Shown here: positions 4,822-50,115 of the stretch, one piece after another
Numbering within the stretch: position 1 is the first letter of the stretch
How the letters are laid out: every line of letters begins with the position of its first letter
Source: Patescibacteria group bacterium
Lineage (GTDB): Bacteria > Patescibacteriota > Saccharimonadia > Saccharimonadales > JAZKJC01
Direction: 5' to 3'
Assembly: GCA_040384565.1 (NCBI GenBank)
Contig: JAZKJC010000005.1
Location: 76,796-140,795, forward strand
DNA: 64,000 bases
The notes under the pieces: model-generated
The model's database searches: none
Told to the model about the DNA's origin: nothing
The model's input: only the letters and a program-made list of their open reading frames with translations
Translations under genes and position numbers: made by a program

Positions 4822-4846
4822 AGTAGGCTTAGTTTAACATTTGCAG

Positions 4847-6649
4847 TTATTCTTCCAAAAATCCACCAGATTGGTGGGCCCACAGTTCGGCATATTCGCC
4901 ATTTTGGTCCAATAATGTTTGGTGGCTGCCGTCTTCTATAATTGCGCCAGTTTTCATGACCAGAATTCTGTCCATTTTTCTGATTGTGCTCAACCTATGT
5001 GCAATCACTATTGTTGTGCGGTTTTTCATAAGGCTATCTAGCGCGCTGGTAATAAGCTTTTCGCTCTTGCTGTCCAATGCGCTGGTTGCTTCATCCAAAA
5101 CCAATATGGGCGCACGGCTAAGCATGGCCCGGGCTATGGCCACACGCTGTTTTTCACCACCGGATAGCTTGATGCCACGCTCGCCAACAAGCGTTTCATA
5201 TTTTTGCGGCATAGACTCAATAAAATCTGCGGCATGAGCCAGCCGAGCGGCTGTGAATACTTCCTCATCAGTTGCATCCTCACGGCCGTAACGGATATTT
5301 TCCATGAGCGATCGGTGAAACAAAATTGGCTCTTGCGGCACAAATGCTATATGGCTACGCAAATCATCTTGGGTTATTTGGGTTATATTTTGGCCATCTA
5401 TCAGTATTTTGCCCTGCTGCAAATCAATAAACCGCATTAGAATTCTGGATAGCGTTGACTTACCCGAGCCAGAATGTCCAACCAGCCCTATCTTTTGCCC
5501 CGGGGTAATAAGCAAGCTAAAGTCATTTAAGACGTCACTATTTGTATTGGGATAGCGAAAATCAACATCTTTGAACTCAATCAGGCCATGCTCTATTTTA
5601 GCTTTTTCTGGATGAGTTGGATCCTGAACTTCTGGCGGTAGGTCTAATATTTCTGTCAGTTCTGCCGCTTCGGATAATGATTGTTCGACACGCTGAACTG
5701 TTTGGTTCAAACTGAGCAGATCCCCGTAGAGTGTAAGTACATAAAGCTGGGCAGTCGTAACAGCAACTGCGGAAGTATGGCCACTGGTTACTAAGTAAAC
5801 CGAAAGATATGCGAAAGCAAAATACAGTCCAAGCAGTAATGCCCAGCGATAGCTTCTTATATGAGCGTCAAAATTAAATGATCTCAAGCGTTTTTTGTAA
5901 CGATCCTGGCTAATTCGGTTAAAACGTCTTTCTTCATGACCTGCCCTGGCAAAAGTCTTAACGTTTAACATGTTAGTGATTGTGTCCGCAAAGACAGCCG
6001 TTACATTTGAATCAGCGGTAGATGCAACTCGTGTTATAGGCGACTTTTTGATAGTTAACCATGTAACGCTTGAGACAAAGAAGATAGCCCAGACAAGTAA
6101 CACTACTCCCAATAAAGGAGCAATGACTAGCAGTACTCCAACAGAAAAAACAACTTTGATTAGTAGCTGAAGCAGATCAAAGAAGAAAATTCCTTCTAAT
6201 TCTTGATATGACCTAACAAACCTAGAAGTTTGCGCTACTAGTGAGCCAGCAAAATTATCTGTATAAAATCTGTAACTATGAAACTGCAATTTATGGAAAA
6301 TGAACTGTTCAAGATCGCGCAATGTTTTACTTTGACGATATATAATAGAGTAGTCGTTAATCCTCCAAAAAGTCACTTCTATAATTTTTACCCCAACTAT
6401 TACCCAAACAGTGTTATACAACTGTTGAGCATCAATCCCGCTATTGAAGTGTGCTAATTGTTGGAGTAGACGTGCCAAGAAGTAACTGACAACAATGTTG
6501 CCCATTACTGTGGCGATGCTAACAGCAATTACATTAAACGTAAATAAATACTTGTAATGAAAAGCTATGCGTAAATAATATCGTAGCGTACGGATGGTTA
6601 TAGCGCTTCGCTTGGGAGGGTTTTGTGTGGTTGATGTCGGTGACAGCAT
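4847..6649 (-). CDS. ABC exporter, fused permease/ATPase, paralog 2
   Basis: Walker A GHSGSGKST, signature LSGGEKQRVAIARA, Walker B ILVLDEATSALD, tail WAHQSGGFLEE. Confidence 0.9.
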   Translation of the reverse strand: MLSPTSTTQNPPKRSAITIRTLRYYLRIAFHYKYLFTFNVIAVSIATVMGNIVVSYFLARLLQQLAHFNSGIDAQQLYNTVWVIVGVKIIEVTFWRINDYSIIYRQSKTLRDLEQFIFHKLQFHSYRFYTDNFAGSLVAQTSRFVRSYQELEGIFFFDLLQLLIKVVFSVGVLLVIAPLLGVVLLVWAIFFVSSVTWLTIKKSPITRVASTADSNVTAVFADTITNMLNVKTFARAGHEERRFNRISQDRYKKRLRSFNFDAHIRSYRWALLLGLYFAFAYLSVYLVTSGHTSAVAVTTAQLYVLTLYGDLLSLNQTVQRVEQSLSEAAELTEILDLPPEVQDPTHPEKAKIEHGLIEFKDVDFRYPNTNSDVLNDFSLLITPGQKIGLVGHSGSGKSTLSRILMRFIDLQQGKILIDGQNITQITQDDLRSHIAFVPQEPILFHRSLMENIRYGREDATDEEVFTAARLAHAADFIESMPQKYETLVGERGIKLSGGEKQRVAIARAMLSRAPILVLDEATSALDSKSEKLITSALDSLMKNRTTIVIAHRLSTIRKMDRILVMKTGAIIEDGSHQTLLDQNGEYAELWAHQSGGFLEE

Positions 6650-6672
6650 ATTAATTCCTTATTCTACGGTTA

Positions 6673-8454
6673 CTATTCCAAAAAACCGCCGGACTGGTGT
6701 GCCCATAGGTTGGCGTAGGTACCTTGTTGTTTAAGCAGCTGCTGGTGAGTGCCCTGCTCTATAATGCTACCTTCATCGAGTACTATTATCCGGTCTAGTC
6801 TTTGGATGGTGCTTAGTCGGTGTGCTATGACTATGGCGGTGCGGTTTTCCATGAGCTTGAGTAGGGCGTCCTGGATCAAGGCCTCGCTTTCCGAATCTAG
6901 TGCCGAGGTAGCCTCATCGAGTACCAGAATAGGTGCGTCCTTGAGCACGGCACGGGCTATGGCTACACGCTGGCGCTGACCGCCTGATAATTTGGTGCCG
7001 CGTTCACCTACCAACGTATCATAACCATGTGGTAACTTTTTGATAAACTCGTCGGCGTGGGCTTTGCGCGATGCGGAAATTACCTGTTCGCGACTGGCTT
7101 TGGGTTCACCATACTGAATATTTTCCATGAGGGAACGGTGAAACATTACTGGCTCCTGCGGTACGTATGCAATTGAGCTTCTCAGGCTATCAAGTGTAAC
7201 TGCTGTGATGTTCTGGCCATCTATAGTTATTCGTCCAGACTGCACATCCATAAACCGCAGTAACAATTTGGTTATGGTAGTTTTGCCGCCTCCGCTTCTG
7301 CCAACTAGCCCGATTTTCTCGCCTGGACTCACAGATAAATTTAGATTTTTGAAAATATGAAACTCCGCACTTTCCTCGTAGCCAAAAGTAACATTCTGAA
7401 ACTTGATGTTTGCATCTTTGACTATTAGTTTTGAGGCGCCTGGTATATTTTTAATCTTAGGTTCGTCTAGCAGTAGCTCTGTAAACTGGGCAGAGTCAGT
7501 AACGTCGGTTTCCAGTTGTTTATATATGGTGTTAAATTCCCATAATACTCTAGTAAACGTCGCGAAATAACTAAAAGAAATAATAATACCCTCAATACTT
7601 TGGGCACCACCCTTGGCGCTTGTCAGCGCAATTGTCAATCCTATCAAATTTATTAATACATACAAAGGTGAAGTTACGGTGTGGATGCGAAGATTTTGGT
7701 AATCCCACGATTTCAAAGTCTTACCAATAAAATCTTTAGTGTATTTGGTGTGCTGAGCCTGTTCTTGGCTAATCTTGGCAAAAGATTGAACCGCAAGCAT
7801 ATTGGTCATGGTATCAGAAATGTTGCCGGCGATAACATTACCGGCTACCTCACGGACGCTGACTAACTTTTGCCTATGGTTTATAAGCGGTAGTACCAGC
7901 AAAATAGTAAAACTTACCATACCAATCAGTACAAAAACAAGCAGCGGGGAGAAATGCCAAAGTATAAAAGCTATGAAAATTAGCGGGATTAAGTTTGCTA
8001 GAACGTTAATGGCTATGGTGTCCATAAAACGGTCAAAATTTTTGGCATAGCCGATTATTTTTTTGGTCAAAGAACCCGAGAAATTATCCTGAAAAAAAGA
8101 CAAATCTTTTTGAAGTATTTGCCTCATGGCGTCAATATAAAGTGATTGAATTCCCCAAGCATTGTTTCGGATTAAAAGATGCAACGCAATACGCCAAACT
8201 GCCTCACCTGCTAACCAAACACCACCAAGTGCCAATACATACGGCGTTAATTGGGCAAAAGTGGGCGAATGGCCGCCAATGTATAATCCTGCAATCTTTG
8301 CCATAAAATATGGTGGCAAGTAAAAAACAAGAATATTGCCAATGCCAGGTAGAATTACGCCAGGCACACTAACCCGCCAATTGCGGCGCCACTCACCGTA
8401 GTAATTTTTCAGAACCAGTCGTCTGGCCTTTTTGCTTAATTCATCTGAACCCAT
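6673..8454 (-). CDS. ABC exporter, fused permease/ATPase, paralog 3
   Basis: Walker A GRSGGGKTT, signature LSGGQRQRVAIARA, Walker B ILVLDEATSALD, tail WAHQSGGFLE. Confidence 0.9.
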   Translation of the reverse strand: MGSDELSKKARRLVLKNYYGEWRRNWRVSVPGVILPGIGNILVFYLPPYFMAKIAGLYIGGHSPTFAQLTPYVLALGGVWLAGEAVWRIALHLLIRNNAWGIQSLYIDAMRQILQKDLSFFQDNFSGSLTKKIIGYAKNFDRFMDTIAINVLANLIPLIFIAFILWHFSPLLVFVLIGMVSFTILLVLPLINHRQKLVSVREVAGNVIAGNISDTMTNMLAVQSFAKISQEQAQHTKYTKDFIGKTLKSWDYQNLRIHTVTSPLYVLINLIGLTIALTSAKGGAQSIEGIIISFSYFATFTRVLWEFNTIYKQLETDVTDSAQFTELLLDEPKIKNIPGASKLIVKDANIKFQNVTFGYEESAEFHIFKNLNLSVSPGEKIGLVGRSGGGKTTITKLLLRFMDVQSGRITIDGQNITAVTLDSLRSSIAYVPQEPVMFHRSLMENIQYGEPKASREQVISASRKAHADEFIKKLPHGYDTLVGERGTKLSGGQRQRVAIARAVLKDAPILVLDEATSALDSESEALIQDALLKLMENRTAIVIAHRLSTIQRLDRIIVLDEGSIIEQGTHQQLLKQQGTYANLWAHQSGGFLE

Positions 8455-8471
8455 TTAGACTAATAGTAACA

Positions 8472-10301
8472 TTATCGGTAGCCTTCGGCTTGTTTGCTGA
8501 ACATCTCATGGTAGAGGCCTTTTTTCTTAAGTAATTGTGAGTGAGAGCCGGTTTCTACTATTTTGCCGTGATCCACAACTATAATTCTGTCGGCTCTTCT
8601 GACTGTGCTGAAGCGGTGGCTGACTATAATGGTTGTTTTGCCCCGGTAGTGCTCAAAAATATTATTGAAAATATCATACTCGGCTTTTGCGTCTATTGCA
8701 GCTGTCGGTTCGTCTAATATAAGCACATTAGCTTGCCTATAAAACGCTCTTGCCAGTGCGACGCGCTGCCATTGGCCTCCACTTGGCTCAATACCTTTTT
8801 TGAAGCTACTGTCCAACACTGTATTCCAACCATGCTCATAACTTTTTACTAACTCGTCGACTCCACCAAACTTAGCAGCTTGAGTCAGCAGTTTTTGGTC
8901 GGGCTTTTGGCTAGAGCGGCCTATGTAAATATTTTCATCAATAGGCATGGGGTAATGATTAAAATCCTGGAACAAAGTCGCCAGCAATGAATACCATGAA
9001 TCAATTGATAAAGCATTTAAATCAATACCGTTTATTAATATCTGCCCTTTTGTGGGGCGGTAAAGCCGCAATAATAGCTTTATGAGCGTGCTTTTGCCAG
9101 CACCGTTTTCACCAACCAAAGCGACGTGTTCCCCCGGTCTAATATGTAGGTTAAGATTCTCAAATATAGCAGAATTTTGTTCCGGATAGCTAAAAGATAC
9201 GTTCTTAAACAGTATGTCAGGAGTGCTATTGTTTGGCAGCTTAATCGCTCCTGGAGTATCTACGATATGTGGCTTGGAATCGATTAAGTCAAAATAACTA
9301 TCTGCAAATAGTAAAGTTTCTTGCATCCTAGACAAGGTACCAAAAATATTATTCAGCGCGCCGCCAATCCTAAGCAACGCTCCGGACAAGAAGAAATACC
9401 TATCCAGTGAGATAGTCCGCCCCAATAATTGGCGAAGCAATATTATCGATCCAGCCCCTGTCCCCATGACTTCCAATATTTTTGTTGGCACTACTAATCG
9501 GCTGGCAAGACGGTATTTATGCTCTTGCTCACGGTAAAAATCATTATTCATACTATCAATTTTGCGCAGAACGTACTGAGTTGCCTGGGAGCTCCGAAGT
9601 TCCATTTGGCCTTTGGCCTGGCGTAGTATGTGATCTAACCCCCAGAAAATATGCCGTTGGTCGCCTTTAGCGTCCCAAACAAACCATTGTAGTTTTGCTA
9701 AACGACCTTCTGCCATAAGTGTCGGTATCAGAAAAACTGCAATCAATGGTACCAGCCACCATGTAATTTGAGCCACAATAATTGTTATGGCGATAAACCG
9801 CAGCAGCGCATAGAGTAAGTCAAGACAAGCGCTGGACAAATTGGAAAGCTGCCAAGTATAGGCGGCACCAACTTTATTGATTTTATTGCGAGTGCGTTCA
9901 CTGTAATACTCTTGTAGGTCTAGCTCACAAAGTGTTCTCATGAACGTATTGGTGGACCAATGCACAAAGGCGTAGTACAACAAATGTTTGGCGTATGTCA
10001 TAGTAAAGAAGCCAATAGCCATTACCGCGGCGGCCACTATATCTATCCATAGCCAAAACCAAATTCCAGTAGTTTGTCCATTTGCTATAAAGCCAGCCAA
10101 CAATGCGCCTAAGCGTGCCGTCGCATAAATTGATGTGACGAACGCGCCTATTTCCAGAAATGCCCCCAGGAAAAACACGCTCATAGCTTTTGAACGAATC
10201 TCCCAACCAGTTTTGAGCATACGTAAACTAAGCCCAATGTGCCGCTTTAAGGTGACTTGGTTTTGTTTAACATCATCCTTACTCATCCAGGAATCCTCCA
10301 C
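8472..10301 (-). CDS. ABC exporter, fused permease/ATPase, divergent member
   Basis: Walker A GENGAGKST, signature variant PSGGQWQRVALARA, Walker B VLILDEPTAAID, H-loop SHRFST. It lacks the QSGGFLEE tail. Its 5' end overlaps the upstream ABC gene by 23 nt. Confidence 0.85.
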   Translation of the reverse strand: MEDSWMSKDDVKQNQVTLKRHIGLSLRMLKTGWEIRSKAMSVFFLGAFLEIGAFVTSIYATARLGALLAGFIANGQTTGIWFWLWIDIVAAAVMAIGFFTMTYAKHLLYYAFVHWSTNTFMRTLCELDLQEYYSERTRNKINKVGAAYTWQLSNLSSACLDLLYALLRFIAITIIVAQITWWLVPLIAVFLIPTLMAEGRLAKLQWFVWDAKGDQRHIFWGLDHILRQAKGQMELRSSQATQYVLRKIDSMNNDFYREQEHKYRLASRLVVPTKILEVMGTGAGSIILLRQLLGRTISLDRYFFLSGALLRIGGALNNIFGTLSRMQETLLFADSYFDLIDSKPHIVDTPGAIKLPNNSTPDILFKNVSFSYPEQNSAIFENLNLHIRPGEHVALVGENGAGKSTLIKLLLRLYRPTKGQILINGIDLNALSIDSWYSLLATLFQDFNHYPMPIDENIYIGRSSQKPDQKLLTQAAKFGGVDELVKSYEHGWNTVLDSSFKKGIEPSGGQWQRVALARAFYRQANVLILDEPTAAIDAKAEYDIFNNIFEHYRGKTTIIVSHRFSTVRRADRIIVVDHGKIVETGSHSQLLKKKGLYHEMFSKQAEGYR

Positions 10302-12060
10302 TTTGACGGGTCCATAGGTCGGCGTAGATTTTGCCGTTTCTGATTAGTTCTTTGTGAGTGCCCTCTTCTGCGACTTCTCCATTATCCAGCACTATGATCC
10401 GGTCCATTTTCTGAATGGTGCTCAGGCGGTGGGCAATTACTATTGTGGTGCGGCCCTCCATAAGTTTCCATAGAGCGTCTTGAATGAATGCTTCTGACTC
10501 TGAATCCAGGGCACTGGTGGCTTCGTCCAAGACTAATATAGGAGCATTCTTTAACATTGCTCGGGCAATAGCGATACGCTGGCGTTGGCCTCCAGAAAGT
10601 TTGACGCCACGTTCACCAACCAGGGTGTCATAGCCTTTGGGTAGCTTCACGATGAACTCGTGGGCGTGTGCCATCTTGGCAATTTCCTCGATTTCCTGTT
10701 GGCTGGCATTGGGCCGGCTGTAGGCAATGTTTTCGGCTAGTGTACGATGGAATAGCAAAGGTTCCTGCGGCACATAGGCAATATGGCGGTGCAGGTCATC
10801 TTGAGTAATTGAGCGGATGTCCTGTCCGTCAATACTGATTGATCCACTGTCAATATCGCTGTAACGCAACAAGAGCCAGGATAGGGTGGTTTTGCCTGAT
10901 CCGGAATGACCAACCAGCCCGATTTTTTCTCCGGCTTTGATATGCAGGTTAATGCGTTTGAACAGGGCGTTGTTGTTCTCGGCATGCGTGAATGACATGC
11001 TAGCTATTTTTATGTCACCACGAACAATCCGGACTTCTTGCGGATCATCAGGATCTTTAATACTAGGTTCAATGTCCAGAATTTTTATCATATCGCTGGC
11101 ATCACCCAGGGCACGGTTATAGTTGCGCAGTACATTTTGAAACTCCCAAAGCCTTTGACCAATGTTGGCGGTGTAGTTGACTATTAAAAACAAAGTGGCT
11201 ATATCGGCCTTATAGACACCTGCGCCAATTATGGCAATGGCCATGGAAGTCACCCCTATACTCGAAGTTATCATGCTCGAATAGGTTTCGCGAATCATCG
11301 TAGCGCTAATTGAACGGTGTCCCATGTTTTTGGTGTGCGTGGCTGACTGCCAGTAACGTTTGGTTTCGTGTTGGCTAGCCGAAAAGCTTTTGACTGCCAT
11401 GACATTGGTAATGCTATCGGCCAGGTTACCGGTTTGTTTACTTTGGGCTTCGGCTTCCAGCGTGTTAGCCTCACGAACTGGCTTAGAAAAATGCACTGCT
11501 CCGACAATATAGATAATTGCCAGTGTTATGAGGGCAAAAGCGAATAGAGGTACCCGTGGTGCCAAGATTGCAATCGTAGCTAGCAGGGCAATCATAAGCG
11601 TATACAGGCTAAAAACAGTTGCGTCTACAAAACGCACATAAGCTCCCGTTAGCTTATTAGATTGTGATACCAGTGAGCCGGCAAAGCGATTAGCATGGAA
11701 ACCGGCACTCATTTGCATAAGGTGATCAAAAATACGCTGGGAAATATCCCGAACAACTCTTACCTCGAGATTCCATATTAGCCAAATATTAAGACGCCAA
11801 ACAGCCACGCCGCTCATGAAAGTCGCAATGCCATAAGCCACAATATATGGGCCAAAACTGCCCCATACGTTGGCATGGTCATAGTTACCTTGACTAATTT
11901 TTTGCAAAACCAAGGACATAATATATGGCACCAGAAAATCTAGCATTAATATAGCTAGGGGTATGGTGAAAATAAGCGGTACCATAAGGCGCTTATACTG
12001 AGCCGCATGATGCCAGAAAAGACTAATGGTCTTCCGGGTAGTAGAAGATGAATTTTTCAT
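10279..12060 (-). CDS. ABC exporter, fused permease/ATPase, paralog 4 (first gene of the minus-strand array)
   Basis: Walker A GHSGSGKTT, signature LSGGQRQRIAIARA, Walker B ILVLDEATSALD, tail WTRQSGGFLDE. Confidence 0.9.
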   Translation of the reverse strand: MKNSSSTTRKTISLFWHHAAQYKRLMVPLIFTIPLAILMLDFLVPYIMSLVLQKISQGNYDHANVWGSFGPYIVAYGIATFMSGVAVWRLNIWLIWNLEVRVVRDISQRIFDHLMQMSAGFHANRFAGSLVSQSNKLTGAYVRFVDATVFSLYTLMIALLATIAILAPRVPLFAFALITLAIIYIVGAVHFSKPVREANTLEAEAQSKQTGNLADSITNVMAVKSFSASQHETKRYWQSATHTKNMGHRSISATMIRETYSSMITSSIGVTSMAIAIIGAGVYKADIATLFLIVNYTANIGQRLWEFQNVLRNYNRALGDASDMIKILDIEPSIKDPDDPQEVRIVRGDIKIASMSFTHAENNNALFKRINLHIKAGEKIGLVGHSGSGKTTLSWLLLRYSDIDSGSISIDGQDIRSITQDDLHRHIAYVPQEPLLFHRTLAENIAYSRPNASQQEIEEIAKMAHAHEFIVKLPKGYDTLVGERGVKLSGGQRQRIAIARAMLKNAPILVLDEATSALDSESEAFIQDALWKLMEGRTTIVIAHRLSTIQKMDRIIVLDNGEVAEEGTHKELIRNGKIYADLWTRQSGGFLDE

Positions 12061-14933: not shown

Positions 14934-15722
14934 GTGTCAGGTGATAATCATCCAAAAGGAAATTACAGTATGCAATTCTTCAATAGTGATAAGCGCAGTC
15001 GGAACATATTAGTGGTTTCTGGCGTGGGTGCTATAGGCGCAATTTATTACTTTAATAGACGACTATTTAGCGAAATGATAGACATTCCCGTTGCAGCTAT
15101 TCAGAATCCACAAGGAACTGGCTTGATTGTAGGTATTACCGGCTTAGGATATTTATTCAAGAATGTCTTCCAAGAACGTAATAACATGGTGCGCAGAGGC
15201 GTGGCTGCTGCAATGATGACGGGCGGGATACTTGCTGCTGCCGGGTTGTTCGGGACTAATCAAGGATATGGAAATGGTAAGAAAAGTGAACGTGCAGTAA
15301 CTTCTACAACAGACCCAGGCGGATCGACCACTCTACCAGAAAAATCCACGAGTCTACCCACAACAGCTGAAACCAAGAATAAAAAACCGTATGTATTTCA
15401 GTATGCCGATCCAAGGTGTCAAGACCTGGAGCCTAATACGCTTGAGCTTGGCGAAACAATCGGCAAACTTATTAAAAATAATACCCTTAATAGCAACAAA
15501 CAACCCGTATTTTCCCAACCCGACATTGATAAAATTGTATCAGGCCAAGATTTTGATAGTCATCCAGGCATCTCTTTGGATAGGGTAAAAGAAGGCTGGA
15601 CAGTAGATATTAATTGCGCCCCCCAGGCTACAACCACTTCGGCGGCTTTTATAACGTCTAGTACTGTTGAATTTGCTTGGAATCCTCAGGCTGCCATAGA
15701 AGCAGTTTCGGCTGCCGCTTAG
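14934..15722 (+). CDS. Hypothetical membrane-anchored protein (262 aa)
   Basis: Several N-terminal hydrophobic segments are followed by a Thr/Ser-rich linker and a Cys-containing C-terminal domain. The start codon is uncertain (GTG 14934 or ATG 14967). Confidence 0.5.
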   Translation: MSGDNHPKGNYSMQFFNSDKRSRNILVVSGVGAIGAIYYFNRRLFSEMIDIPVAAIQNPQGTGLIVGITGLGYLFKNVFQERNNMVRRGVAAAMMTGGILAAAGLFGTNQGYGNGKKSERAVTSTTDPGGSTTLPEKSTSLPTTAETKNKKPYVFQYADPRCQDLEPNTLELGETIGKLIKNNTLNSNKQPVFSQPDIDKIVSGQDFDSHPGISLDRVKEGWTVDINCAPQATTTSAAFITSSTVEFAWNPQAAIEAVSAAA

Positions 15723-17815
15723 CTTGTAAGGCTACCTTGGGTAGGGTCTGAAACAGAGACCATATATTGTGCCCAGGTCTTTGCTACGCTATTGCTGGAT
15801 ACGCCCTTTATTTCTATTTTCCCCTTGGGGTTGCCTTCCCAGATGACGGCTGTTTGCCCACCATTTCTGTGCCACATACTGCCGCCAAAATAAAAGTCCG
15901 TATTGGTATCGCCCGTGCCGGTTTTGCCTGCGACTGAAGCCGAACCCGAGGCAGGAATGGCTGCCCCGTAAGCAGTACCGTTAGCAGCTGTAATTACTTT
16001 ATTCATAGCCATGATAGCTAGACGGGCCGCAGGCTCCTCGATGACACGTTTGCCACTTTCAGTCGCATGCTGATAGAGCACTTTAGCTTCCTCGGCCTTT
16101 GACGGGTCTTTGTTTGGTTTGCCGGGGATAATTACTGACTTGATTAAAAACGGTGATCTATAAACGCCTTTATTGAGTATTAACCCGTTCATAGCTGCTG
16201 CGATTTGCAGGGTATTATATTGGCCAGTGCCTAGAATGACCGATGGAAATTCTTTTGCCGGAATCCCCAGAGCCTGCAGTGTTTCTATAAACTTAGGAAT
16301 ACCAATATAATCCTGCACAAGGCGGGCTGCTCCGACATTATCGGACTCGGCGACAATATCCCCAATTTGCTTTTTACAGACATCATTGGGGCACTTATGC
16401 TTGGGCTTAACAACCCAGTCTTTGCCACCTACGTCACCTTTAAAGGTTACTGGTGTGCTGATGTCTATTTCGGTTTCCAGTGTTAAAGTTTCATCTGCCG
16501 CAAATGCCAGAGCCGCGATGATTCCCTTAAAAACAGAGCCCGCCTCACGCTTGCCGTGTGCCGCAATATTCAGTTGTTCCTGGTCAAAAGCTTCGTTCCC
16601 AACCATTGCATTGATGGCCCCGCTTTGATGCATAGCTACGCCGGCGCCAGCTACATCAGGCCGTTGAACGTTAGCATCATTCTTTATGACATCACAGAGC
16701 GCTGCTTGATCTTTTGAGTTAATGGTTGTTTCTACTGTGGCGCCACTGTTTATGAGGTCCTGTCTATCCAGACCGGTTTTTTCATGTATCTCAGCAATAG
16801 TATATTCCATAAGATGCCTGGTACAGCGCTGGTTGCCTTCAGGGATATTTATCTGTGGGCGTGACCTGTTGGCTATTATAAAATCTGTAATCTTCATGGC
16901 CTTAAGTCGATCTCTGGCTTCAGCTGTCAGAGCACCTGTTTGAACCATAGCATCCAGAACTTGCTTATACTCTACGGTTCCTTCATGTATCTCTTCAGCC
17001 AGCAGCTCTTCTTTCGTTTTAATTCCATCACCTTCCGTAACAACAAGGTCTCTCTTATCAGGCCTGGCTAGGGTTGAACCAAGATACGCTGACTGGTATG
17101 GCTTCAAGGCTTCAGCTGATGTATTAAAATACGCTTGAGCAGCAGCTTCAGCACCATATGCACCGCGACCAAAATACACAATGTTGAGATACTTTTCTAG
17201 TATCTCCCGTTTGCGCTGCATCCTTTGGTCCTTGGGAACGTTATTTAGGGCTAAGGCAATCCGCATATCATGTATTTTTCGTGCGGCCTCTAGGCTTTTT
17301 CTAGTTGCTAAACCTGTTAATACGCCTTCACTTCGTAAATCTTTTTCGGTCGGTGCCTCGTAAGCATTTTTCACCATCTGGGTATCAATGGTTGAACCGC
17401 CCTGTACGAATGCACCGGCCTGGACATCTTTAATTAATGCTTTCACGGTTCTTGTACCATTCACGCCCTCATGTTCCCAGAAACGCCGGTCTTCAGAGGC
17501 AATCACGGCAGCTACAAGGTTGGGACTAATTTCGCTTAATGGTTTTGGATCAGAGTTCTTGACGGCCATTGTACCTATGGCGGTACTAGTGGGAGTACAA
17601 GGTTTGATATCTTCAAAACAGACCCGTCCAATAACATTGGTCTTGGGTTCAGGAATCGTATTTGCTGGCTGGAGTGCTCGTTCTGTAAGATCGTCTACGA
17701 AGTTAGCCAGTGCGTCTGGCATTTTATCCGGATTTTCATAGAGGTAATAACCGGCACCACTAAGAGTCCCCAGTAAAGCGACCCCCGTGCCTAACAAATT
17801 CATTCTATATCCCAT
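15719..17815 (-). CDS. Class A penicillin-binding protein (glycosyltransferase GT51 plus transpeptidase)
   Basis: GT51 motifs ASEDRRFWEHEGVN and GGSTIDTQ; transpeptidase motifs SVFK (SxxK) and KTGT; N-terminal TM anchor. Confidence 0.9.
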   Translation of the reverse strand: MGYRMNLLGTGVALLGTLSGAGYYLYENPDKMPDALANFVDDLTERALQPANTIPEPKTNVIGRVCFEDIKPCTPTSTAIGTMAVKNSDPKPLSEISPNLVAAVIASEDRRFWEHEGVNGTRTVKALIKDVQAGAFVQGGSTIDTQMVKNAYEAPTEKDLRSEGVLTGLATRKSLEAARKIHDMRIALALNNVPKDQRMQRKREILEKYLNIVYFGRGAYGAEAAAQAYFNTSAEALKPYQSAYLGSTLARPDKRDLVVTEGDGIKTKEELLAEEIHEGTVEYKQVLDAMVQTGALTAEARDRLKAMKITDFIIANRSRPQINIPEGNQRCTRHLMEYTIAEIHEKTGLDRQDLINSGATVETTINSKDQAALCDVIKNDANVQRPDVAGAGVAMHQSGAINAMVGNEAFDQEQLNIAAHGKREAGSVFKGIIAALAFAADETLTLETEIDISTPVTFKGDVGGKDWVVKPKHKCPNDVCKKQIGDIVAESDNVGAARLVQDYIGIPKFIETLQALGIPAKEFPSVILGTGQYNTLQIAAAMNGLILNKGVYRSPFLIKSVIIPGKPNKDPSKAEEAKVLYQHATESGKRVIEEPAARLAIMAMNKVITAANGTAYGAAIPASGSASVAGKTGTGDTNTDFYFGGSMWHRNGGQTAVIWEGNPKGKIEIKGVSSNSVAKTWAQYMVSVSDPTQGSLTS

Positions 17816-17869
17816 GACTTCTCGTTATAACATTACTCGTCAATAATTACCAGTTGATTTTAAAAAAAC

Positions 17870-18408
17870 CTTGCCAAACCTCCCACAATATTGTATATTC
17901 AAACAACATGGAACGAAACATTATGGAGACAAGCGTACAAGTTGAAGCTGAATCTGGTGTAGCGGGCTTAGGAGTAATTACTAAGCTTACTGTACTTGGC
18001 TTAGCCGTTGTATTACTACCCAGAATGTTCATGGGTGGTGATGACCTACCCAAACCACCTACCGCTGCCACTGAAGCCTTAGCACCTGCTGGCGTAGATT
18101 TGTCACCTGAAGATGAGATAGTCGTACCTACTACTGCCACCACTACCCTCCCGCTAGAAACAGCACCCCCAGACACTGCAGCTCCAGAGGCACCACCCAC
18201 CTCAGCTACCACAGCCAAGACAACCGTAACAACCCGAGTCCGCAGCACTACTACGACAAAACCAAAGCCCGCCACCACTGCCAAGCCTACAGCCACCACA
18301 ACTCAACCAACAACTACCGCTCCCGCCATTACGGCCGCACCTCCTACAACAGCATCAACGGCCGCTCCGACTACTACGATGGCTCCGACTACTACAACTA
18401 CTCTTAGC
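17870..18408 (+). repeat. Copy A of a perfect 539-bp direct repeat
   Basis: Base-for-base identical to 19740-20278 (offset 1870 bp) in my reading. The first mismatch is at 18409 versus 20279. Confidence 0.9.
17871..17899 (+). promoter_or_regulatory. Sigma70-like promoter of MERN-family gene 1
   Basis: TTGCCA (17871-17876), 17-nt spacer, TATATT (17894-17899). The ATG follows 8 nt later with no Shine-Dalgarno sequence. Confidence 0.55.
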
Positions 18409-18837
18409 CCACAAGTGATAGCGCGCAATCAGGATTTGGCCGTAGAATCAGAAGTTGCTCAGATGCTAGCTTCAATTAAGACTCAACCTAAGACAATGGT
18501 AGTTGACACATGTCCGCTCTATGATCTTCAAAGAATTATTGACGGCCGACACTTGGTGTTAAGTGGCCTTATACCTTATGTAAAAAACAATACTCGGTAT
18601 TTTGTGGGATGGAATAGCTCAAATAATAATGCTGCCGTAGCAATACGTGAACAGTTTGTGGATGGTACGCAATACAAAATTACGTTTCCCAGTAATGGCA
18701 GAAGCCGTGAAGAAGATCCTGATATAGTGTGCGGTTTGCAATCCAGAATTGTCCAATATGACCCAGGAGATAAGAAAGTATATGGCGTACTGCCAGATGT
18801 GCATCGGGGACTCGTTGGCTTAGTTGTAGAGCCTTAG
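17908..18837 (+). CDS. MERN-family membrane-anchored surface protein 1 (TM anchor, Thr/Pro-rich stalk, Cys-pair C-terminal domain)
   Basis: I chose the start at MERNIMETS because both paralogs start there; the track's 17854 start would run through the promoter. It has the TM segment GLGVITKLTVLGLAVVLL, a T/P/A-rich region of roughly 130 aa, and a C-terminal domain with DTCPLY...IVCGLQSRIVQYDP. Confidence 0.75.
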   Translation: MERNIMETSVQVEAESGVAGLGVITKLTVLGLAVVLLPRMFMGGDDLPKPPTAATEALAPAGVDLSPEDEIVVPTTATTTLPLETAPPDTAAPEAPPTSATTAKTTVTTRVRSTTTTKPKPATTAKPTATTTQPTTTAPAITAAPPTTASTAAPTTTMAPTTTTTLSPQVIARNQDLAVESEVAQMLASIKTQPKTMVVDTCPLYDLQRIIDGRHLVLSGLIPYVKNNTRYFVGWNSSNNNAAVAIREQFVDGTQYKITFPSNGRSREEDPDIVCGLQSRIVQYDPGDKKVYGVLPDVHRGLVGLVVEP

Positions 18838-18856
18838 TAAATTACGACAAAAACAC

Positions 18857-18885
18857 TTGCATATAAAACAAGTATATGGTATATT
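18857..18885 (+). promoter_or_regulatory. Sigma70-like promoter of MERN-family gene 2
   Basis: TTGCAT (18857-18862), 17-nt spacer, TATATT (18880-18885), with the ATG 9 nt downstream. The geometry matches that of the other two paralogs. Confidence 0.5.
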
Positions 18886-18894
18886 TGAACAATC

Positions 18895-19710
18895 ATGGAG
18901 AGAAATGTAACGGCAGAAAACGAAGCTGGTGGAGCATTAACTAAGCTAGTAGGTTTATTTGCACTGTTCGCAACTGTTGGTGCAGTAGCCGGCTGGCAGT
19001 ATCTAGGCAAAGGCATAGACAAAACAACTGATGCGAGCAGAACGGCATTTGATAAAGCGGCAGAGAGCCCAACATCGATACCAGAAGTTACGTCAACTAC
19101 GACTGAGCCACCAGAAGAGGAAGAAATGCTTGCCACTACAACTACAACAAAGAAAACGGTTTCCACTACTAAAGTACCTGTAACTAAAGTACCTGTAACC
19201 ACTTCTATTAAGTCTCCCACAACAACGTCGTCAACGGCTCCCGCAGTTACCTCATCAACGACTACTGTATCAACTACAACAAAAGTTCCTACACCAGGTG
19301 AAAGGGCATACTCCCAAGCCCAGAATTTATATCAGCAGGTCAGGGGTGGAACCCGCCCAATAAGAACAATAGATAGTTGTAGGATATTGGAAGTGAATGT
19401 TACTGGCACAAACCCAGGAAACTTTATGCTCAAGGAAGTCGTATTGTTTGACGTCGGAAGTAATACGGCTGTTTTAGGCGGCTGGGTTGATGATGATAAC
19501 GCGCCTAATCACGGCGAACCGATCATTGTAGGCCATAACGCTACGATTATCTCTGACGCGCAGCAATCCACAGATCGGAAATATTGTGGGCCTCAGTCAA
19601 AGATACTGTTTTATGACCCGGCAAATACTCACCTTGAAGGACTAATCCCTGAAGCGTCTGATTTGCCCGCAGAGAAAACACCGGTCGGTACAGCTGAAAA
19701 AATCGGCTAA
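18895..19710 (+). CDS. MERN-family membrane-anchored surface protein 2
   Basis: It starts MERNVTAENE, has the TM segment LTKLVGLFALFATVGAVAG and a Thr-rich stalk. The C-terminal domain has DSCRILEV...KYCGPQSKILFYDP, aligning with paralog 1. Confidence 0.75.
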   Translation: MERNVTAENEAGGALTKLVGLFALFATVGAVAGWQYLGKGIDKTTDASRTAFDKAAESPTSIPEVTSTTTEPPEEEEMLATTTTTKKTVSTTKVPVTKVPVTTSIKSPTTTSSTAPAVTSSTTTVSTTTKVPTPGERAYSQAQNLYQQVRGGTRPIRTIDSCRILEVNVTGTNPGNFMLKEVVLFDVGSNTAVLGGWVDDDNAPNHGEPIIVGHNATIISDAQQSTDRKYCGPQSKILFYDPANTHLEGLIPEASDLPAEKTPVGTAEKIG

Positions 19711-19739
19711 ACTCATTCAAAACAATAGAATATTATTTA

Positions 19740-20278
19740 CTTGCCAAACCTCCCACAATATTGTATATTCAAACAACATGGAACGAAACATTATGGAGAC
19801 AAGCGTACAAGTTGAAGCTGAATCTGGTGTAGCGGGCTTAGGAGTAATTACTAAGCTTACTGTACTTGGCTTAGCCGTTGTATTACTACCCAGAATGTTC
19901 ATGGGTGGTGATGACCTACCCAAACCACCTACCGCTGCCACTGAAGCCTTAGCACCTGCTGGCGTAGATTTGTCACCTGAAGATGAGATAGTCGTACCTA
20001 CTACTGCCACCACTACCCTCCCGCTAGAAACAGCACCCCCAGACACTGCAGCTCCAGAGGCACCACCCACCTCAGCTACCACAGCCAAGACAACCGTAAC
20101 AACCCGAGTCCGCAGCACTACTACGACAAAACCAAAGCCCGCCACCACTGCCAAGCCTACAGCCACCACAACTCAACCAACAACTACCGCTCCCGCCATT
20201 ACGGCCGCACCTCCTACAACAGCATCAACGGCCGCTCCGACTACTACGATGGCTCCGACTACTACAACAGCTCCTACG
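19740..20278 (+). repeat. Copy B of the perfect 539-bp direct repeat
   Basis: Identical to 17870-18408. It includes the promoter (19741-19769) and codons 1-167 of the CDS starting at 19778. Confidence 0.9.
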
Positions 20279-20737
20279 ACAACTACCACTACTAGACCGC
20301 CTACTCCGTTAGAAAAGGCAAATAATTATGCAGCTTCGCTTATAAGTCAAATCCGGCAGAATCCTAATCTGGGCGTAGCTACACGAGCTAATAACTGCTT
20401 AGTGTATAAATGGGTAGATACTGCAGGAGGGCGATTACATGTTGCCGACCCCATAAGATATCGTTCAGAATCCGCAGGACGAAGTGTCTTGTATCTCATT
20501 AGCTGGAATGAACAATTTGAAAGCAAACTAGTTGCTGTTGATGCCACTGATCCTGCCGACAAAAGCCCTTACACAATCAGTACAATAGAACAAATAAATA
20601 CGGTACCTACCCCTTATTGCGGAGAAAATATCCCCAGAACACTTACATTTGCAGGAGAATATAACCGAGTGTGGGGAACTTATGCGGACAGCACAACAAG
20701 TGATACGCGTCTTGTCGGTGTTGCGAGCCCTCTATAG
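19778..20737 (+). CDS. MERN-family membrane-anchored surface protein 3
   Basis: The first 167 codons are identical to gene 1. The C-terminal domain then diverges but keeps the two Cys positions (NNCLVYKW...PYCGENIPRTLTF). Confidence 0.75.
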   Translation: MERNIMETSVQVEAESGVAGLGVITKLTVLGLAVVLLPRMFMGGDDLPKPPTAATEALAPAGVDLSPEDEIVVPTTATTTLPLETAPPDTAAPEAPPTSATTAKTTVTTRVRSTTTTKPKPATTAKPTATTTQPTTTAPAITAAPPTTASTAAPTTTMAPTTTTAPTTTTTTRPPTPLEKANNYAASLISQIRQNPNLGVATRANNCLVYKWVDTAGGRLHVADPIRYRSESAGRSVLYLISWNEQFESKLVAVDATDPADKSPYTISTIEQINTVPTPYCGENIPRTLTFAGEYNRVWGTYADSTTSDTRLVGVASPL

Positions 20738-21545: not shown

Positions 21546-22394
21546 TTAGGTGCTGGGATCGGGCACTATGCCCGCATCCACCGTTAGCTTTTCAAACTGG
21601 CATTCTTGAACGGGTTTGGCATTAATGGTGATGTTACTATCAGCATTTTTGATATCTTTTATTTTATCAGTGAGTCTTGTCTTGTACGGACGGGCCGCGG
21701 AAGCTGTTGATGCAGTTGATGACCTGTCGATAGTTAGAGTTTTTAGGTTTGGCATTAATGCTTTTATGTCTTCTGCAAGGCCGTCATCGTACAGCTTTCT
21801 AATCTTAGCGGCTTCTGCTGTTTTGCCCTCCGGATAGATAAGGCATTCCGCAGCTGTGGCACTAGCCGCACTGCTAAGCTGCCACAGGTTATTAATAAGA
21901 TCACCGGGAGCACTCTTCTTGCAGGCTCCCCAGTCGCCTTTATATGTCTGGGTGGCCTTTTTTGCCAGGTTAAACCGCGGATTAAACAGCTCATAGTTGC
22001 CACTTACTGTAGCAGTCGCGTCATACCTGCCTTCACTGTCCGGTTCTGATTTTTTGACCGTAACATCGCCCATGTGTATGACTGATTCTGCTTCAAACGG
22101 GAGATTCAAACCGACAGTAAAATCACAATCAATAAATGCTGGCCGGTTATCAAAATAGCGCGCGCTAACGGGTACCACACCAGTAATCTTCCCAACTGCA
22201 AAGGCACTCAGCTTGAATACCGTAGCACTCGGTAATTCCAGTTCCGGAACATTCCTGGCGGCTTCGCGTTCGTCGTAGTTATAAAAAACTACGCTGCCAA
22301 TCTCTCTTTCAAAACCGGGCTTATTACCAAGCGCGAAAGACTCCGCGGTTAGGGCGCCGACTGCGAAAGCAAATGCGGCGAGCTTGCTGGTCAT
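21546..22394 (-). CDS. Hypothetical secreted four-Cys protein, paralog B (282 aa)
   Basis: It has the signal-like N-terminus MTSKLAAFAFAVGALTAESFA. It shares KLSAFAVGKITG, four Cys positions and a C-terminal QECQFEKLTV with the upstream gene. Confidence 0.65.
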   Translation of the reverse strand: MTSKLAAFAFAVGALTAESFALGNKPGFEREIGSVVFYNYDEREAARNVPELELPSATVFKLSAFAVGKITGVVPVSARYFDNRPAFIDCDFTVGLNLPFEAESVIHMGDVTVKKSEPDSEGRYDATATVSGNYELFNPRFNLAKKATQTYKGDWGACKKSAPGDLINNLWQLSSAASATAAECLIYPEGKTAEAAKIRKLYDDGLAEDIKALMPNLKTLTIDRSSTASTASAARPYKTRLTDKIKDIKNADSNITINAKPVQECQFEKLTVDAGIVPDPST

Positions 22395-22396
22395 AA

Positions 22397-23239
22397 TTAC
22401 TTTTCCTCCTGGTTCGGAGATAAACTTAGGCTTAACACCTTAAAATCTGTAAATTCGCAGTTGGTAGTTGGTGTACTGGTAATCTCGGTTTTCCCTTGCG
22501 ATTGCTGTTCTAGAACTACTCCTAGTTTTTTTGTATGCGGCGAGCTAGCTGGGTCGATTGCGGGGGGTATATGGATGTTAACAATAGCGGCTTTTGGGTG
22601 AGCGACTTTAACAATATCAGTCATGCTTTCTGTAACAGATGTCTGAAATTCTGGTTTAGCGAGTATACAGTCGCCCACAGTGTCGGCTGTGGCTTGTGCG
22701 ACTGGGTTCATGTCGCGCACTAGGTTAAGGCCATTGCTCACTTTGCAGTTTCCAAAACCGTAGCCTATATCGGCTTTGCTTTTAGAGAGATCGATCCCGG
22801 AGGCAATGACCGGAGGCTTATTTAAAGTAACATCTACCGTAGAGCGGTCCGGGCTTTCTACCACCGTGATATCTGACGCTCTCGCCGCAATGACCGTTCC
22901 GACTGCCGCGTATTTATTGGTTACATTTACTTCGCAGCCCAATCTATCAAATGTTCCGCTGACGGTAAATTCCGAGGTCGCTAGTCCGGTTATGAATGCG
23001 CTAAATTTGCTGACTCTGGCAGTCGGAGGGCCAATATCAATAGTTTTTTTGGCATTGGATTTATATTCAAATCCTAGGCCTGTTGCTTTCCCCGAGACTT
23101 CACCAGCAGCGTCAACTACGAACGGAAACCCGATAACACCAATAAAATTAAGAGATGCAATCGCAAGCCCGCCCATGGCAGCATTAAACCCGGCTGTGTA
23201 TGCTAAACTCCCACCAAATCTCTCAACTAATCTATTCAT
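22397..23239 (-). CDS. Hypothetical four-Cys envelope protein, paralog A (280 aa)
   Basis: It has a hydrophobic N-terminus. It shares KFSAFITGLATS, four Cys positions (GCEV, GNCKV, GDCIL, TNCEF) and an overall length matching 21546-22394. Only 2 nt separate the two genes. Confidence 0.65.
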   Translation of the reverse strand: MNRLVERFGGSLAYTAGFNAAMGGLAIASLNFIGVIGFPFVVDAAGEVSGKATGLGFEYKSNAKKTIDIGPPTARVSKFSAFITGLATSEFTVSGTFDRLGCEVNVTNKYAAVGTVIAARASDITVVESPDRSTVDVTLNKPPVIASGIDLSKSKADIGYGFGNCKVSNGLNLVRDMNPVAQATADTVGDCILAKPEFQTSVTESMTDIVKVAHPKAAIVNIHIPPAIDPASSPHTKKLGVVLEQQSQGKTEITSTPTTNCEFTDFKVLSLSLSPNQEEK

Positions 23240-24536: not shown

Positions 24537-27059
24537 GTGGAAATTGGTCCCGACTACTTTCTGCCATCAGAGCAGAGAATCGTCCATCAAGATAAAGATA
24601 ATTCTGGAGTTGAACCAGGGGGTGTAATTAAGTGGGTTGCTACTGGCTTGTCCGGAGTTATGGGTCTCGCATTTATACCTGAAGTTACGCTTATGAGGCC
24701 CTCAGAAAGAACTGAAGTTTTGTCTGTCGGCGCTGGGAGTGAGTTAGCATGGGGTTACGCGACTATGCGGGCTAGTGATGCAGCCCCTGAAGTACTGTTA
24801 CCGGCAGCACAAGCTATTGAGTTATCTCAGCGGGTTGTGGCTGATATGGAGGGCGCACTAAGCGTGGTAGCAGCAAGCTCGCCAGTCAAACCAATAGCTG
24901 CTGCCAAGCAAGCTGCCCGTACGGCTTCTGAGTTAGAACAAGCCGCTCCAATCCAAGTGGCAAGAATGTCTGAACCGGGTCAAATGCGTCCAATAGCCGT
25001 AGCCGCTTCTTCCTCTAGGCCGGCAACGGTGATTAGGTCATCTGCACCTGCCGTCGAATCAGTAGCTTTATCTGCTCAGCATATTGTGTCCACAAAGCCG
25101 ATAGTTATGAGCATAAGGCCCAAAATGAGCGAAGCATCTGAGGCAGCTTTTGAGCCGAATACAGACAAAACGTTAAAAATAGCTGCAGCTGGCGAACGGC
25201 TTCCCGTACTAACCGCGGTGGAAACAAAGCTTGCGGCAGCTCCGCTGTCTAGTGTTACTGCTGCCACTATGCAGGAATCACCGCATTCTATAGCAGGCAG
25301 ATCATTTGTCTTGCCGATGGATAAACCGCGTAAGACAAGTGATTACGGGATGCGAGGTGGCCGCCTGCATGCAGGTGTTGACTTAGCGGATATGCATCGG
25401 GACAAGAATCCCCGTGTTAAGTCGGTAGAAAGTGGCACAGTTATAGAAGCAGGTATAAACGGCGCATTCGGGAAATACGTACGCGTTAGGCATGGCACAG
25501 ATGAGACGGGAAGAATTGTAGATACCGAGTATGCTCACTTAAGCCGTATTGATGTGCGGGAGACTCAAATTGTTGAGCAGGGACAACAAATAGGCCTTAT
25601 GGGTAATACAGGAGCTTCCAGGGGGGGGCACCTTCATTTCGGAGAGATTTGGGTGGATGGAACACATAAAAATGGTCGCCGCGTAAACCCAAACCTTTCT
25701 TTAGCCGGACGGATTTTCCCTGGTGCTGTTGTACTTGAATCAGGTGTCAGCTCTGTTCCCGCGGTAGCCGTTGAAGCCGTGGAACCTGATGTTGCTACCC
25801 AAGCCGAAACGGCAGAGTCCGCAGTTAAGGCAATTGCGGGGATAATGAGTATATCGCCGGAATCAGCCAGGATGTCACGTGCTTCGGAGCAGATTTTCTC
25901 AACCCTTTCCGGCTTAACAGTACGGCCGGTGGTCCCCAAAATAATTCAGTATCACAATGGAGACCGGCGTAATCGGCGTGGCGGCTCCCAGAGCAGCTCT
26001 GCTCCACCTGCACCGAATATGTCCGAATCACCCGAGGATGGTTTTGCGGCTAATGATGGTGCCGCAGGCGTAATGCCAATCGCTCCCAGAATACCGCAGA
26101 ACGGACAATCAGGTTCTGCTCATGAGGGATCAACCCCAGTGCCAAATACTCTCCCCACTACGGGTCCAGCGGTAACGCCACAGTCACCGAGCGGTGAAGT
26201 TGCTCCGAGCGCTCAACCGCCCCAAGCTTTCACTGGAGAACAAGCGCCTGGGCACAATGAAGATAAGAATGACAAAGAAAAGAAAGTTCCTCCGCCTAGA
26301 ATGTCCGAAGCATCGGAAGAGCTCTTTGCGGCACTTGGTGAAGGTACCGCTTTTGCTTTGGCTCTTGAGGCAGCTGAAGGAACTGGCCCTGCAGCCAATA
26401 ATGGTAATTTGCCGGTGCAGCCGGAAGCACCTCGCTCAGGCCCGGAAGCTCCAGCTATTGCCAGACTATTCACTCCGCAGGTAGTAAAACAGATGCTACC
26501 GAACGCTCCGCCGGGAAATATCGACAAGTATCTGCCTTTAATATTGGATGCCTTGCATGAATTTGGCCTGGATGACAGACAGATGGTGTTGTTCACATTA
26601 GCAACTACCGCTCCAGAAACCCCTGGCTTTGAACCTATATCAGAACGTTCAGATGGTTCCAGATATGATCCCGACCCTTCTATTAACCCTAGTGCAAAAC
26701 GGCGTGCAGTAGCTGTAAGAAACGGTAACACAACCAAGGGCGATGGTTATCGATATAGGGGAAGAGGCTTTGAGCAATTAACTTGGAAGAATAGCTACAG
26801 AGCATATGGCGATATTATTGGAGTCAACCTTGTAGACAATCCTGATCTCGCAAATGATCCACGTAACGCGGCTCGTATTATGGCGGCCTTTATAAAAGCC
26901 CGTGAAAGTCGTATCCGAGCCGGGTTGAACCGGAATGACACTAGGGATCCCCGCGCGGCTATTAATGGCGGTTCAAATGGCCTAAGCTTGTTCACAACAA
27001 CATATCAAAGAGGTATGTCCATTACGGATGAGCTGATTAGGTCTGGCCAGCCAGGCTAG
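24537..27059 (+). CDS. Membrane-anchored bifunctional peptidoglycan hydrolase: M23 (LytM) endopeptidase plus GH19-like lysozyme/chitinase domain
   Basis: GTG start preceded by AGGAG, with the N-terminal TM segment WVATGLSGVMGLAFI. M23 motifs: HAGVDLA, YAHLS, GNTGASRGGHLHFGE. After an Ala/Pro-rich linker the C-terminal region has the GH19-type pattern APETPGF...GDGYRYRGRGFEQLTWKNSY...DNPDLA...INGGSNGL. Confidence 0.8.
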   Translation: MEIGPDYFLPSEQRIVHQDKDNSGVEPGGVIKWVATGLSGVMGLAFIPEVTLMRPSERTEVLSVGAGSELAWGYATMRASDAAPEVLLPAAQAIELSQRVVADMEGALSVVAASSPVKPIAAAKQAARTASELEQAAPIQVARMSEPGQMRPIAVAASSSRPATVIRSSAPAVESVALSAQHIVSTKPIVMSIRPKMSEASEAAFEPNTDKTLKIAAAGERLPVLTAVETKLAAAPLSSVTAATMQESPHSIAGRSFVLPMDKPRKTSDYGMRGGRLHAGVDLADMHRDKNPRVKSVESGTVIEAGINGAFGKYVRVRHGTDETGRIVDTEYAHLSRIDVRETQIVEQGQQIGLMGNTGASRGGHLHFGEIWVDGTHKNGRRVNPNLSLAGRIFPGAVVLESGVSSVPAVAVEAVEPDVATQAETAESAVKAIAGIMSISPESARMSRASEQIFSTLSGLTVRPVVPKIIQYHNGDRRNRRGGSQSSSAPPAPNMSESPEDGFAANDGAAGVMPIAPRIPQNGQSGSAHEGSTPVPNTLPTTGPAVTPQSPSGEVAPSAQPPQAFTGEQAPGHNEDKNDKEKKVPPPRMSEASEELFAALGEGTAFALALEAAEGTGPAANNGNLPVQPEAPRSGPEAPAIARLFTPQVVKQMLPNAPPGNIDKYLPLILDALHEFGLDDRQMVLFTLATTAPETPGFEPISERSDGSRYDPDPSINPSAKRRAVAVRNGNTTKGDGYRYRGRGFEQLTWKNSYRAYGDIIGVNLVDNPDLANDPRNAARIMAAFIKARESRIRAGLNRNDTRDPRAAINGGSNGLSLFTTTYQRGMSITDELIRSGQPG

Positions 27060-45900: not shown

Positions 45901-46033
45901 AATAAAAAACCTGCTTCCTATTCTGGTTGTCCCAGACACGTACACCATACGGTCACAGTTTGGAAAGCCGGTCAGGTGTACCTCCTATAGTACTGACACA
46001 GCATAAGCGTCAGAGGCTGTTATAATTGCAGAT

Positions 46034-47353: not shown

Positions 47354-47360
47354 TGTCAAG

Positions 47361-50078: not shown

Positions 50079-50115
50079 GATCAATGTTTAGAAATAATCT
50101 GCTGTAAGGCGTATA

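Follow-up and report, generated by a model that had tools for sequence, protein, structure and literature searches.

How do two neighbouring genes come to share a promoter and an N-terminal coding region base for base, and then encode different C-terminal domains? The question is raised by a 64-kb stretch of DNA (hereafter the window, to whose numbering all positions refer unless a contig is named) from a 144-kb contig of the NCBI metagenome-assembled genome (MAG) 'Patescibacteria group bacterium'. Within it lie three tandem same-strand genes, here called A, B and C, beside a divergently transcribed gene for a class A penicillin-binding protein (PBP). Each of the three encodes a protein with a putative N-terminal membrane anchor, a stalk rich in threonine and proline, and a C-terminal head, and two of them, A and C, begin within copies of an exact direct repeat of 529 bp. 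Gene conversion between tandem paralogs is a textbook mechanism. Here, we present evidence that recent gene conversion or homologous recombination probably gave rise to this identity, and that the locus adds one more case of a well-known process, in a protein family not previously described.

The limits of the repeat were set by direct sequence comparison. All 529 of its 529 bases are identical in the two copies (Table 1); the tract starts 1 nucleotide (nt) before a TTGCCA-17 nt-TATATT promoter match, and its 3' edge falls within an 18-bp tandem unit of the stalk. The original prediction, made from the sequence of this stretch, had placed the start just 5' of the −35 box and the end inside the Thr/Pro stalk, and both placements hold. 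Its long exact repeat is real and its two starting positions were right, but the length of 539 bp was too great, as five of the final 10 nt of that range are mismatched (18399, 18400, 18404, 18407 and 18408). Likewise a common N-terminal prefix exists, but it comprises 164 rather than 167 codons: counted from the ATG (17908 in A, 19778 in C), 491 nt of coding sequence are identical, and the two proteins are equal over their first 164 residues. The identity takes in 38 non-coding nt and all synonymous sites of these 164 codons, and zero differences in 529 bp correspond to a calculated divergence between the copies of less than about 0.6% at 95% confidence. Beyond the 3' edge the similarity drops within 10 bp, and a global DNA alignment of A and C from there on gives 48.7% identity, compared with 46.2% for shuffled sequence. 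Because these two values are close, the divergence past the repeat is, as judged from the alignment, saturated. In a repeat comparison across the window this was the only long perfect repeat; other paralog arrays there are 67-83% identical, with short blocks of 67-79% identity among the tandem ABC-transporter paralogs. One antisense open reading frame (ORF) of 150 amino acids (aa) lies inside each repeat copy (17847-18299 and 19717-20169, − strand); both mirror the Thr/Pro/Ala codons as Val/Gly-rich sequence, and almost certainly neither is a gene.

Identity of this kind might be attributed to purifying selection alone, with no recent recombination, given that functional elements (promoter, start codon and membrane anchor) lie within the module. 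Selection for function would have to account, however, for a promoter spacer and a full set of synonymous sites that are all identical, and for a module that has diverged elsewhere. The relatives available for this comparison are short contigs of sequencing run SRR24791550 and one JGI contig. In one of them, L002, the first gene carries the syntenic N1 module (see below), which is only ~66-73% identical to that of A in DNA, so that the same module differs by ~30% in a relative; the module of gene B is ~50% identical. Identity at every synonymous and non-coding site of such a module therefore excludes selection as the cause, and at the synonymous sites it effectively refutes this explanation. 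Recent gene conversion or recombination, as originally predicted, is instead borne out by the 529 identical bases adjoining saturated divergence. Two further marks of gene conversion are evident, namely a sharp-edged tract of ~100% identity amid saturated divergence and a converted part that is incongruent with the remainder of the gene. A and C have the same 5' module but heads that are only 23% identical, while head A is 42-56% identical to heads of other organisms.

We propose that one recent homologous-recombination event would account for the present arrangement. In its simplest form this would be gene conversion or templated gap repair, and unequal crossover followed by deletion would be an equivalent route. 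In one paralog, the segment from promoter through anchor to stalk would have been overwritten by its counterpart from the other, the conserved promoter and the repetitive stalk supplying flanking homology. The limits of the tract appear to coincide with those of the homology shared across the family, namely the CTTG of the −35 box on the 5' side and the tandem Thr-codon unit before the head on the 3' side, which is the pattern expected if promoter and stalk provide the flanking homology; what the comparison identifies at the two ends is the family promoter block and the 18-bp Thr-codon unit. The 18-bp unit consists of Thr, Ala and Pro codons and, as local homology, could anchor recombination. 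Gene A was probably the donor, because its type of anchor module (N1, see below) is also adjacent to a PBP gene in L002. As a result, identical promoters would drive the expression of two different heads, each carried on an identical anchor and stalk. Once formed, the direct repeats could mediate an amplification or a 1870-bp deletion in which head A is lost together with gene B. The original prediction had foreseen deletion or inversion of the intervening DNA; deletion stands, and duplication is to be added, but inversion is impossible between direct repeats.

Apparent duplications in a MAG call for scrutiny of the assembly, and a second explanation of the repeat is that it is an artefact, in which the copies are not truly identical or the layout is unreal, with paralogs collapsed on one graph edge or strain variants placed in series. 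In a de Bruijn assembly, both passes through a repeat edge yield one and the same sequence. As a separate check we used the Logan k=31 assembly of run SRR26324625, whose contigs do break at the repeat: contig L009 ends at 17899, L001 spans 18369-19769 and L008 begins at 20239, each overlapping the repeat by exactly 30 nt (k−1) at its edges. L001 and L008 aligned to the window at 100% identity, and L009 was placed by an exact PBP match. Four junctions, from the PBP side into the repeat, from the repeat into head A, from the 3' end of gene B into the repeat and from the repeat into head C, are all present in this separate assembly. The sole linear path therefore runs from the PBP side through the repeat into head A and gene B, and through the repeat again into head C, which is the published order. 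The tandem layout is genuine, and an invented duplication is ruled out. Moreover, the edges are sharp and lie at biologically sensible sites (the −35 box and the stalk tandem unit). We consider an artefact quite unlikely, and at most it would downgrade 'perfect' identity to 'near-perfect'. The risk of assembly collapse that had been pointed out is nevertheless real, as the three Logan contigs stopping 30 nt inside the repeat edges attest; the repeat breaks short-read assemblies, cells may differ in their gene content at such a locus, and MAGs may misreport it.

Three aspects of the assembly evidence weigh against our interpretation. Base-perfect identity inside the repeat rests on assembled sequence, and graph assemblers reuse one edge and can fuse variants that are nearly identical. 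The Logan reads and those behind the MAG may be one set. In addition, the gene C protein, with either start, is absent from a collection of 15 billion proteins in which A, B and the PBP of the same NCBI contig are present, a finding that also counts in favour of an artefact; gene C may be unannotated in the GenBank record.

The three genes each have their own promoter, with a start codon 8-9 nt past the −10 box (Table 1). In gene A only 8 nt separate the −10 box from the ATG, and they contain no visible Shine-Dalgarno sequence; the mRNAs are therefore probably leaderless or nearly so. The family promoter design (CTTG..., a 17-nt spacer, TATATT, 8-9 nt, ATGG) is kept across paralogs and across organisms that are ~66% identical in DNA. 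Over their first 60 aligned columns the two genes of L002 share 86% identity, which falls to ~45-55%, near random, beyond them. By these alignments no other part is as well conserved among paralogs as the promoter block. A short distance between promoter and start codon is also seen at 20839, where a gene starts 6 nt past a GATAAT box.

Every protein has one hydrophobic helix, within the first ~40 residues, followed by a stalk of 90-130 residues that is 33-36% Thr and otherwise contains Pro, Ala and Ser. The heads measure ~140 residues and hold each protein's only two Cys, spaced 69-74 residues apart. In the anchor encoded on the relative contig L004, more Lys and Arg precede the helix and an acidic stretch follows it, a charge pattern that suggests an N-in, C-out orientation. 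On the basis of these features the heads would be displayed outside the membrane, on a stalk predicted to be long enough to cross the wall. No LPXTG motif occurs in A, B or C, whose C-termini read ...GLVGLVVEP, ...GTAEKIG and ...VGVASPL, respectively, and whose sole hydrophobic helix is N-terminal.

Table 1. Positions of the genes, promoters and repeated segments at the locus, with matching sites on contigs of relatives (accessions of A, B and the PBP obtained by exact look-up)
Feature	Position	Strand	Description
Class A penicillin-binding protein gene	15719..17815	−	transglycosylase + transpeptidase; divergent from gene A; NCBI start 17803, 694 aa, MES2971145.1
Repeat copy 1	17870..18398	+	529 bp exact; promoter, 8-nt spacer, gene A codons 1-164 (N-terminus, membrane helix, most of Thr/Pro stalk)
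Gene A promoter	17871..17899	+	sigma-70-like; TTGCCA, 17 nt, TATATT; ATG 8 nt past −10 box
Gene A	17908..18837	+	309 aa, MES2971146.1, V4702_02370; N1 anchor, stalk, A-type head at 18403-18834
Gene B promoter	18857..18885	+	TTGCAT, 17 nt, TATATT; ATG 9 nt downstream; read by eye, below scan thresholds
Gene B	18895..19710	+	271 aa, MES2971147.1, V4702_02375; N2 anchor, stalk, B-type head at 19282-19707
Repeat copy 2	19740..20268	+	identical to copy 1; promoter and gene C codons 1-164
Gene C promoter	19741..19769	+	identical to gene A promoter
Gene C	19778..20737	+	319 aa; N1 anchor and stalk identical to A; C-type head at 20294-20734
18-bp tandem unit	20234..20274	+	GCTCCGACTACTACAACA, 2.3 copies; straddles the 3' breakpoint of the repeat
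Family promoter design, window	17871-17910, 18857-18897, 19741-19780		
Family promoter design, relatives	L002 700-752 and 1680-1722; L005 668-710		
Shared 49-nt segment	L003 1-49, L005 1-49; also L005 979-1008		

Searches for relatives of these proteins returned few sequences. Beyond low-complexity noise (e.g. Pneumo_att_G, DnaX tau), neither A, B and C nor the neighbouring orphan genes match a family in Pfam, NCBIfam, PHROGs or PADLOC. A full HMMER scan with a head profile against 1.84 billion representative proteins gave 13 matches, of which ~7 are true members (A, B, P0002, P0003, P0006, P0007 and P0012), the others being long repetitive proteins. Word-index protein searches recovered only the query gene, P0002 and P0003; with head C alone they matched nothing, not even gene C. 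Exact partial peptides of the repeat were not in the protein collection. A scan of GTDB representative genomes found no family member, but it did not match the source MAG either; one of JGI metagenome contigs found two spurious short matches only, and those of viral contigs a single spurious match, on the wrong strand of a large ORF. In the literature we found nothing relevant on these accessions, on gene conversion in Patescibacteria or on Thr-rich surface proteins. The family, which belongs to Patescibacteria, is very rare, lineage-specific and undescribed.

Relations among the heads are of unequal clarity. A-type and B-type heads align in hhalign with a probability of 97.7% and an E-value of 1.6e-12, and by this profile comparison they are clearly homologous; gene B is a true paralog, where the original prediction had it share the architecture only. 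Head C gave 42.5% and an E-value of 2.6e-4 against the B-type, a marginal relation, and has no detectable homolog elsewhere; it keeps the helix, the two Cys, a Trp and the C-terminal VG motif. The view that the heads of A and C differ and still align through conserved Cys positions is correct as to the two Cys, 69-74 residues apart in each head, but the homology of head C is only marginal. As to what the heads do, neither a profile search of PDB sequences with the head (E > 1) nor a Foldseek search of the PDB with low-confidence head models (nothing at E <= 0.001) gave a match. The term adhesin, used for these proteins at the outset, was a guess, as the heads match no known family or fold.

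Comparison with the relatives indicates that heads and anchors have been combined in several ways. By pairwise identity the heads fall into an A-type (A, L004, L005 and P0012, 42-56% identical) and a B-type (B, P0002, the second gene of L002, and P0003, 48-62% identical), with C alone, and the anchors into N1 (identical in A and C, 58% in P0002), N2 (B and the second gene of L002) and N3 (L004 and P0012). Next to the PBP gene of L002 lies a gene whose N1-like anchor and stalk, with 58% identity to those of A and C, bear a B-type head (P0002); the second gene, like gene B of the window, joins an N2 anchor to a B-type head. On L004 and in P0012, A-type heads sit on the third anchor type beside a PBP-like gene, in the case of P0012 probably so. 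The observed combinations are thus N1+A, N1+C, N1-like+B, N2+B and N3+A. Heads on other N-termini, for which a search of further genomes had been suggested, accordingly do occur, the A-type on N3 (P0012, L004) and the B-type on an N1-like anchor (P0002). The groupings of heads and of anchors disagree; therefore heads and anchors have recombined more than once in the family. Over evolutionary time, the process proposed for A and C would also have re-assorted heads and anchors among relatives. In the SRR24791550 paralogs P0003 (B-type) and P0007 (A-type), 46 of 49 nt, including an identical 30-mer, are shared at the junction of N-terminus and stalk, and the position of this segment at contig ends suggests a similar tandem layout with short shared tracts in these relatives.

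Some further points belong with those raised above against our interpretation. The SRR24791550 contigs are short, come from one sample and possibly represent more than one organism, so that the orthology calls are tentative. Topology and surface display are read from sequence only, and N-in signal anchors do not usually have an acidic flank such as the one before the N1 helix. The AlphaFold2 models of the heads, built from 8-sequence alignments, are of low confidence, with predicted local distance difference test (pLDDT) values of 53.6 for head A and 47.6 for head B.

A constant module with exchangeable heads invites comparison with antigen-variation cassettes, as in the original prediction, and programmed variation is a third explanation: a constant expression module would receive heads swapped at high frequency, with the repeat as the switch site. 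The constant module and differing heads, the varying head and anchor combinations among relatives and the 46/49-nt segment linking two relative paralogs with different heads would all agree with it. A cassette system is, however, hard to reconcile with the rest of the locus. When all head and anchor types were used in a tblastn search of the window, only the three complete genes were found, with no silent, partial or promoterless copies; every family gene has its own promoter; and there are neither recombinase domains among the window ORFs scanned nor long inverted repeats in the window. P0006 (128 aa) and P0007 (107 aa) were considered as head-only genes and rejected, as in their DNA the ORFs are full-length and only the starts had been mis-called. 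Recombination between the direct repeats, moreover, would irreversibly delete head A and gene B. We regard programmed variation as very unlikely, and the likeness to antigen-variation cassettes has to be given up. What the locus records is concerted or mosaic evolution, not programmed switching.

The locus can also be compared with known systems. In Helicobacter pylori, gene conversion among the bab paralogs (babA/babB/babC) yields chimeras whose 5' region and body stem from different genes (PMC4552749). There, as proposed here, intragenomic recombination between surface paralogs moves a 5' regulatory region, and conserved ends accompany a divergent binding region (PMC4552749). The bab genes differ in occupying separate loci, in encoding outer-membrane beta-barrel adhesins and in having phase-variable CT repeats, whereas the genes described here are tandem, encode an N-terminal helix anchor, show no phase-variable tract and belong to an unrelated family. 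Among documented cases, bab gene conversion is the closest counterpart. The vsp, vpma and vsa systems of Mycoplasma consist of clustered genes with conserved 5' and N-terminal export or anchor regions and divergent, surface-exposed C-terminal parts, and their switching relies on site-specific inversion by a dedicated recombinase, as a rule with a single active promoter. They resemble the present locus in a constant 5' and anchor region with divergent C-terminal parts; they differ from it in that the repeats here are direct, each gene has a promoter, no recombinase was found among the window ORFs scanned and the N1 anchor lacks a lipobox.

Neisseria pilE/pilS and Borrelia vlsE combine a constant expressed portion with variable portions through gene conversion, a process that needs many promoterless silent cassettes, of which none were found in the window. 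The Rhs and CdiA polymorphic toxins have a constant N-terminal delivery part and a swappable C-terminal tip, with recombination at the shared junction and orphan modules. In the present case no toxin or immunity signatures were detected (Pfam, NCBIfam, PADLOC), the proteins are small (~300 aa), and what lies downstream are complete paralogs rather than orphan tips. The LPXTG/MSCRAMM proteins of Gram-positive bacteria contain a Pro/Thr-rich segment presumed to span the wall and are anchored C-terminally by sortase. The likeness lies in a low-complexity Pro/Thr-rich segment presenting a globular domain; the difference lies in the lack of LPXTG and the N-terminal anchor.

The pairing of a divergent PBP gene with a family gene is kept in the window, on L002 and on L004 (where the PBP is only 26.5% identical), and probably also on the P0012 contig. 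This conservation would fit a role for the family alongside PBP1a in cell-wall synthesis, with an anchored protein reaching the wall through a flexible linker in the manner of LpoA or LpoB. The origin of the repeat would be unchanged in that case, and the identical modules would reflect a shared anchoring requirement. Three diverged heads per genome and the re-assortment of heads, however, suit variable binding partners better than one enzyme; there is no sequence or fold similarity to known PBP regulators, and conserved gene order alone is weak evidence. A partnership with PBP1a is therefore, in our estimation, unlikely.

The interpretation of A and C as products of recombination between paralogs has a bearing on the biology of these organisms. 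How ultrasmall Patescibacteria recognise and attach to their partners is largely unknown; published work to date points mostly to type IV pili (PMC11623550). The present locus supplies candidate surface proteins with diverged heads, and it constitutes clear sequence evidence of recombination that reshuffles such candidates. A wider suggestion, possible but doubtful, is that the orphan family is a modular cell-surface recognition system of episymbiotic Patescibacteria, in which the promoter block and the Thr-codon stalk serve as recombination anchors for the exchange of modules and heads. If so, several binding heads would be carried on a uniform scaffold, and lineages would re-assort them as partner organisms change. 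A binding role for the heads is likewise a prediction.

Several other features of the window deserve mention. An orphan run of membrane and secreted proteins (~12.3-31.5 kb) includes, at 24537-27059 (+ strand), a gene whose 840-aa product contains an M23 peptidase domain and weakly matches GH19 (chitinase/lysozyme-like); the product could be a wall-degrading enzyme for an episymbiotic lifestyle. Two adjacent orphan genes at 21546-22394 and 22397-23239 (− strand) are distant paralogs (23% identity, E 1e-5) of no known family. Five tandem ABC exporter paralogs (ABC_membrane + ABC_tran, 583-609 aa) occupy 3070-12060 on the − strand, with conserved blocks of 62-79% DNA identity, and are a second, much older paralog array. 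Among imperfect repeats, a 109-nt direct repeat with 83% identity occurs at 47251-47359 and 49976-50084, 2.7 kb apart, and a 44-nt repeat with 86% identity, containing the near-palindrome CGACAATTGTCG, at 1611-1654 and 2238-2281; the copies of the latter flank a gene for a PaaX-like regulator (1653-2213) and may be operator sites. Finally, a match to the Rfam family DUF3800-IX RNA lies at 45904-45973 on the − strand, with a score of 52 bits against a gathering threshold of 36.8.

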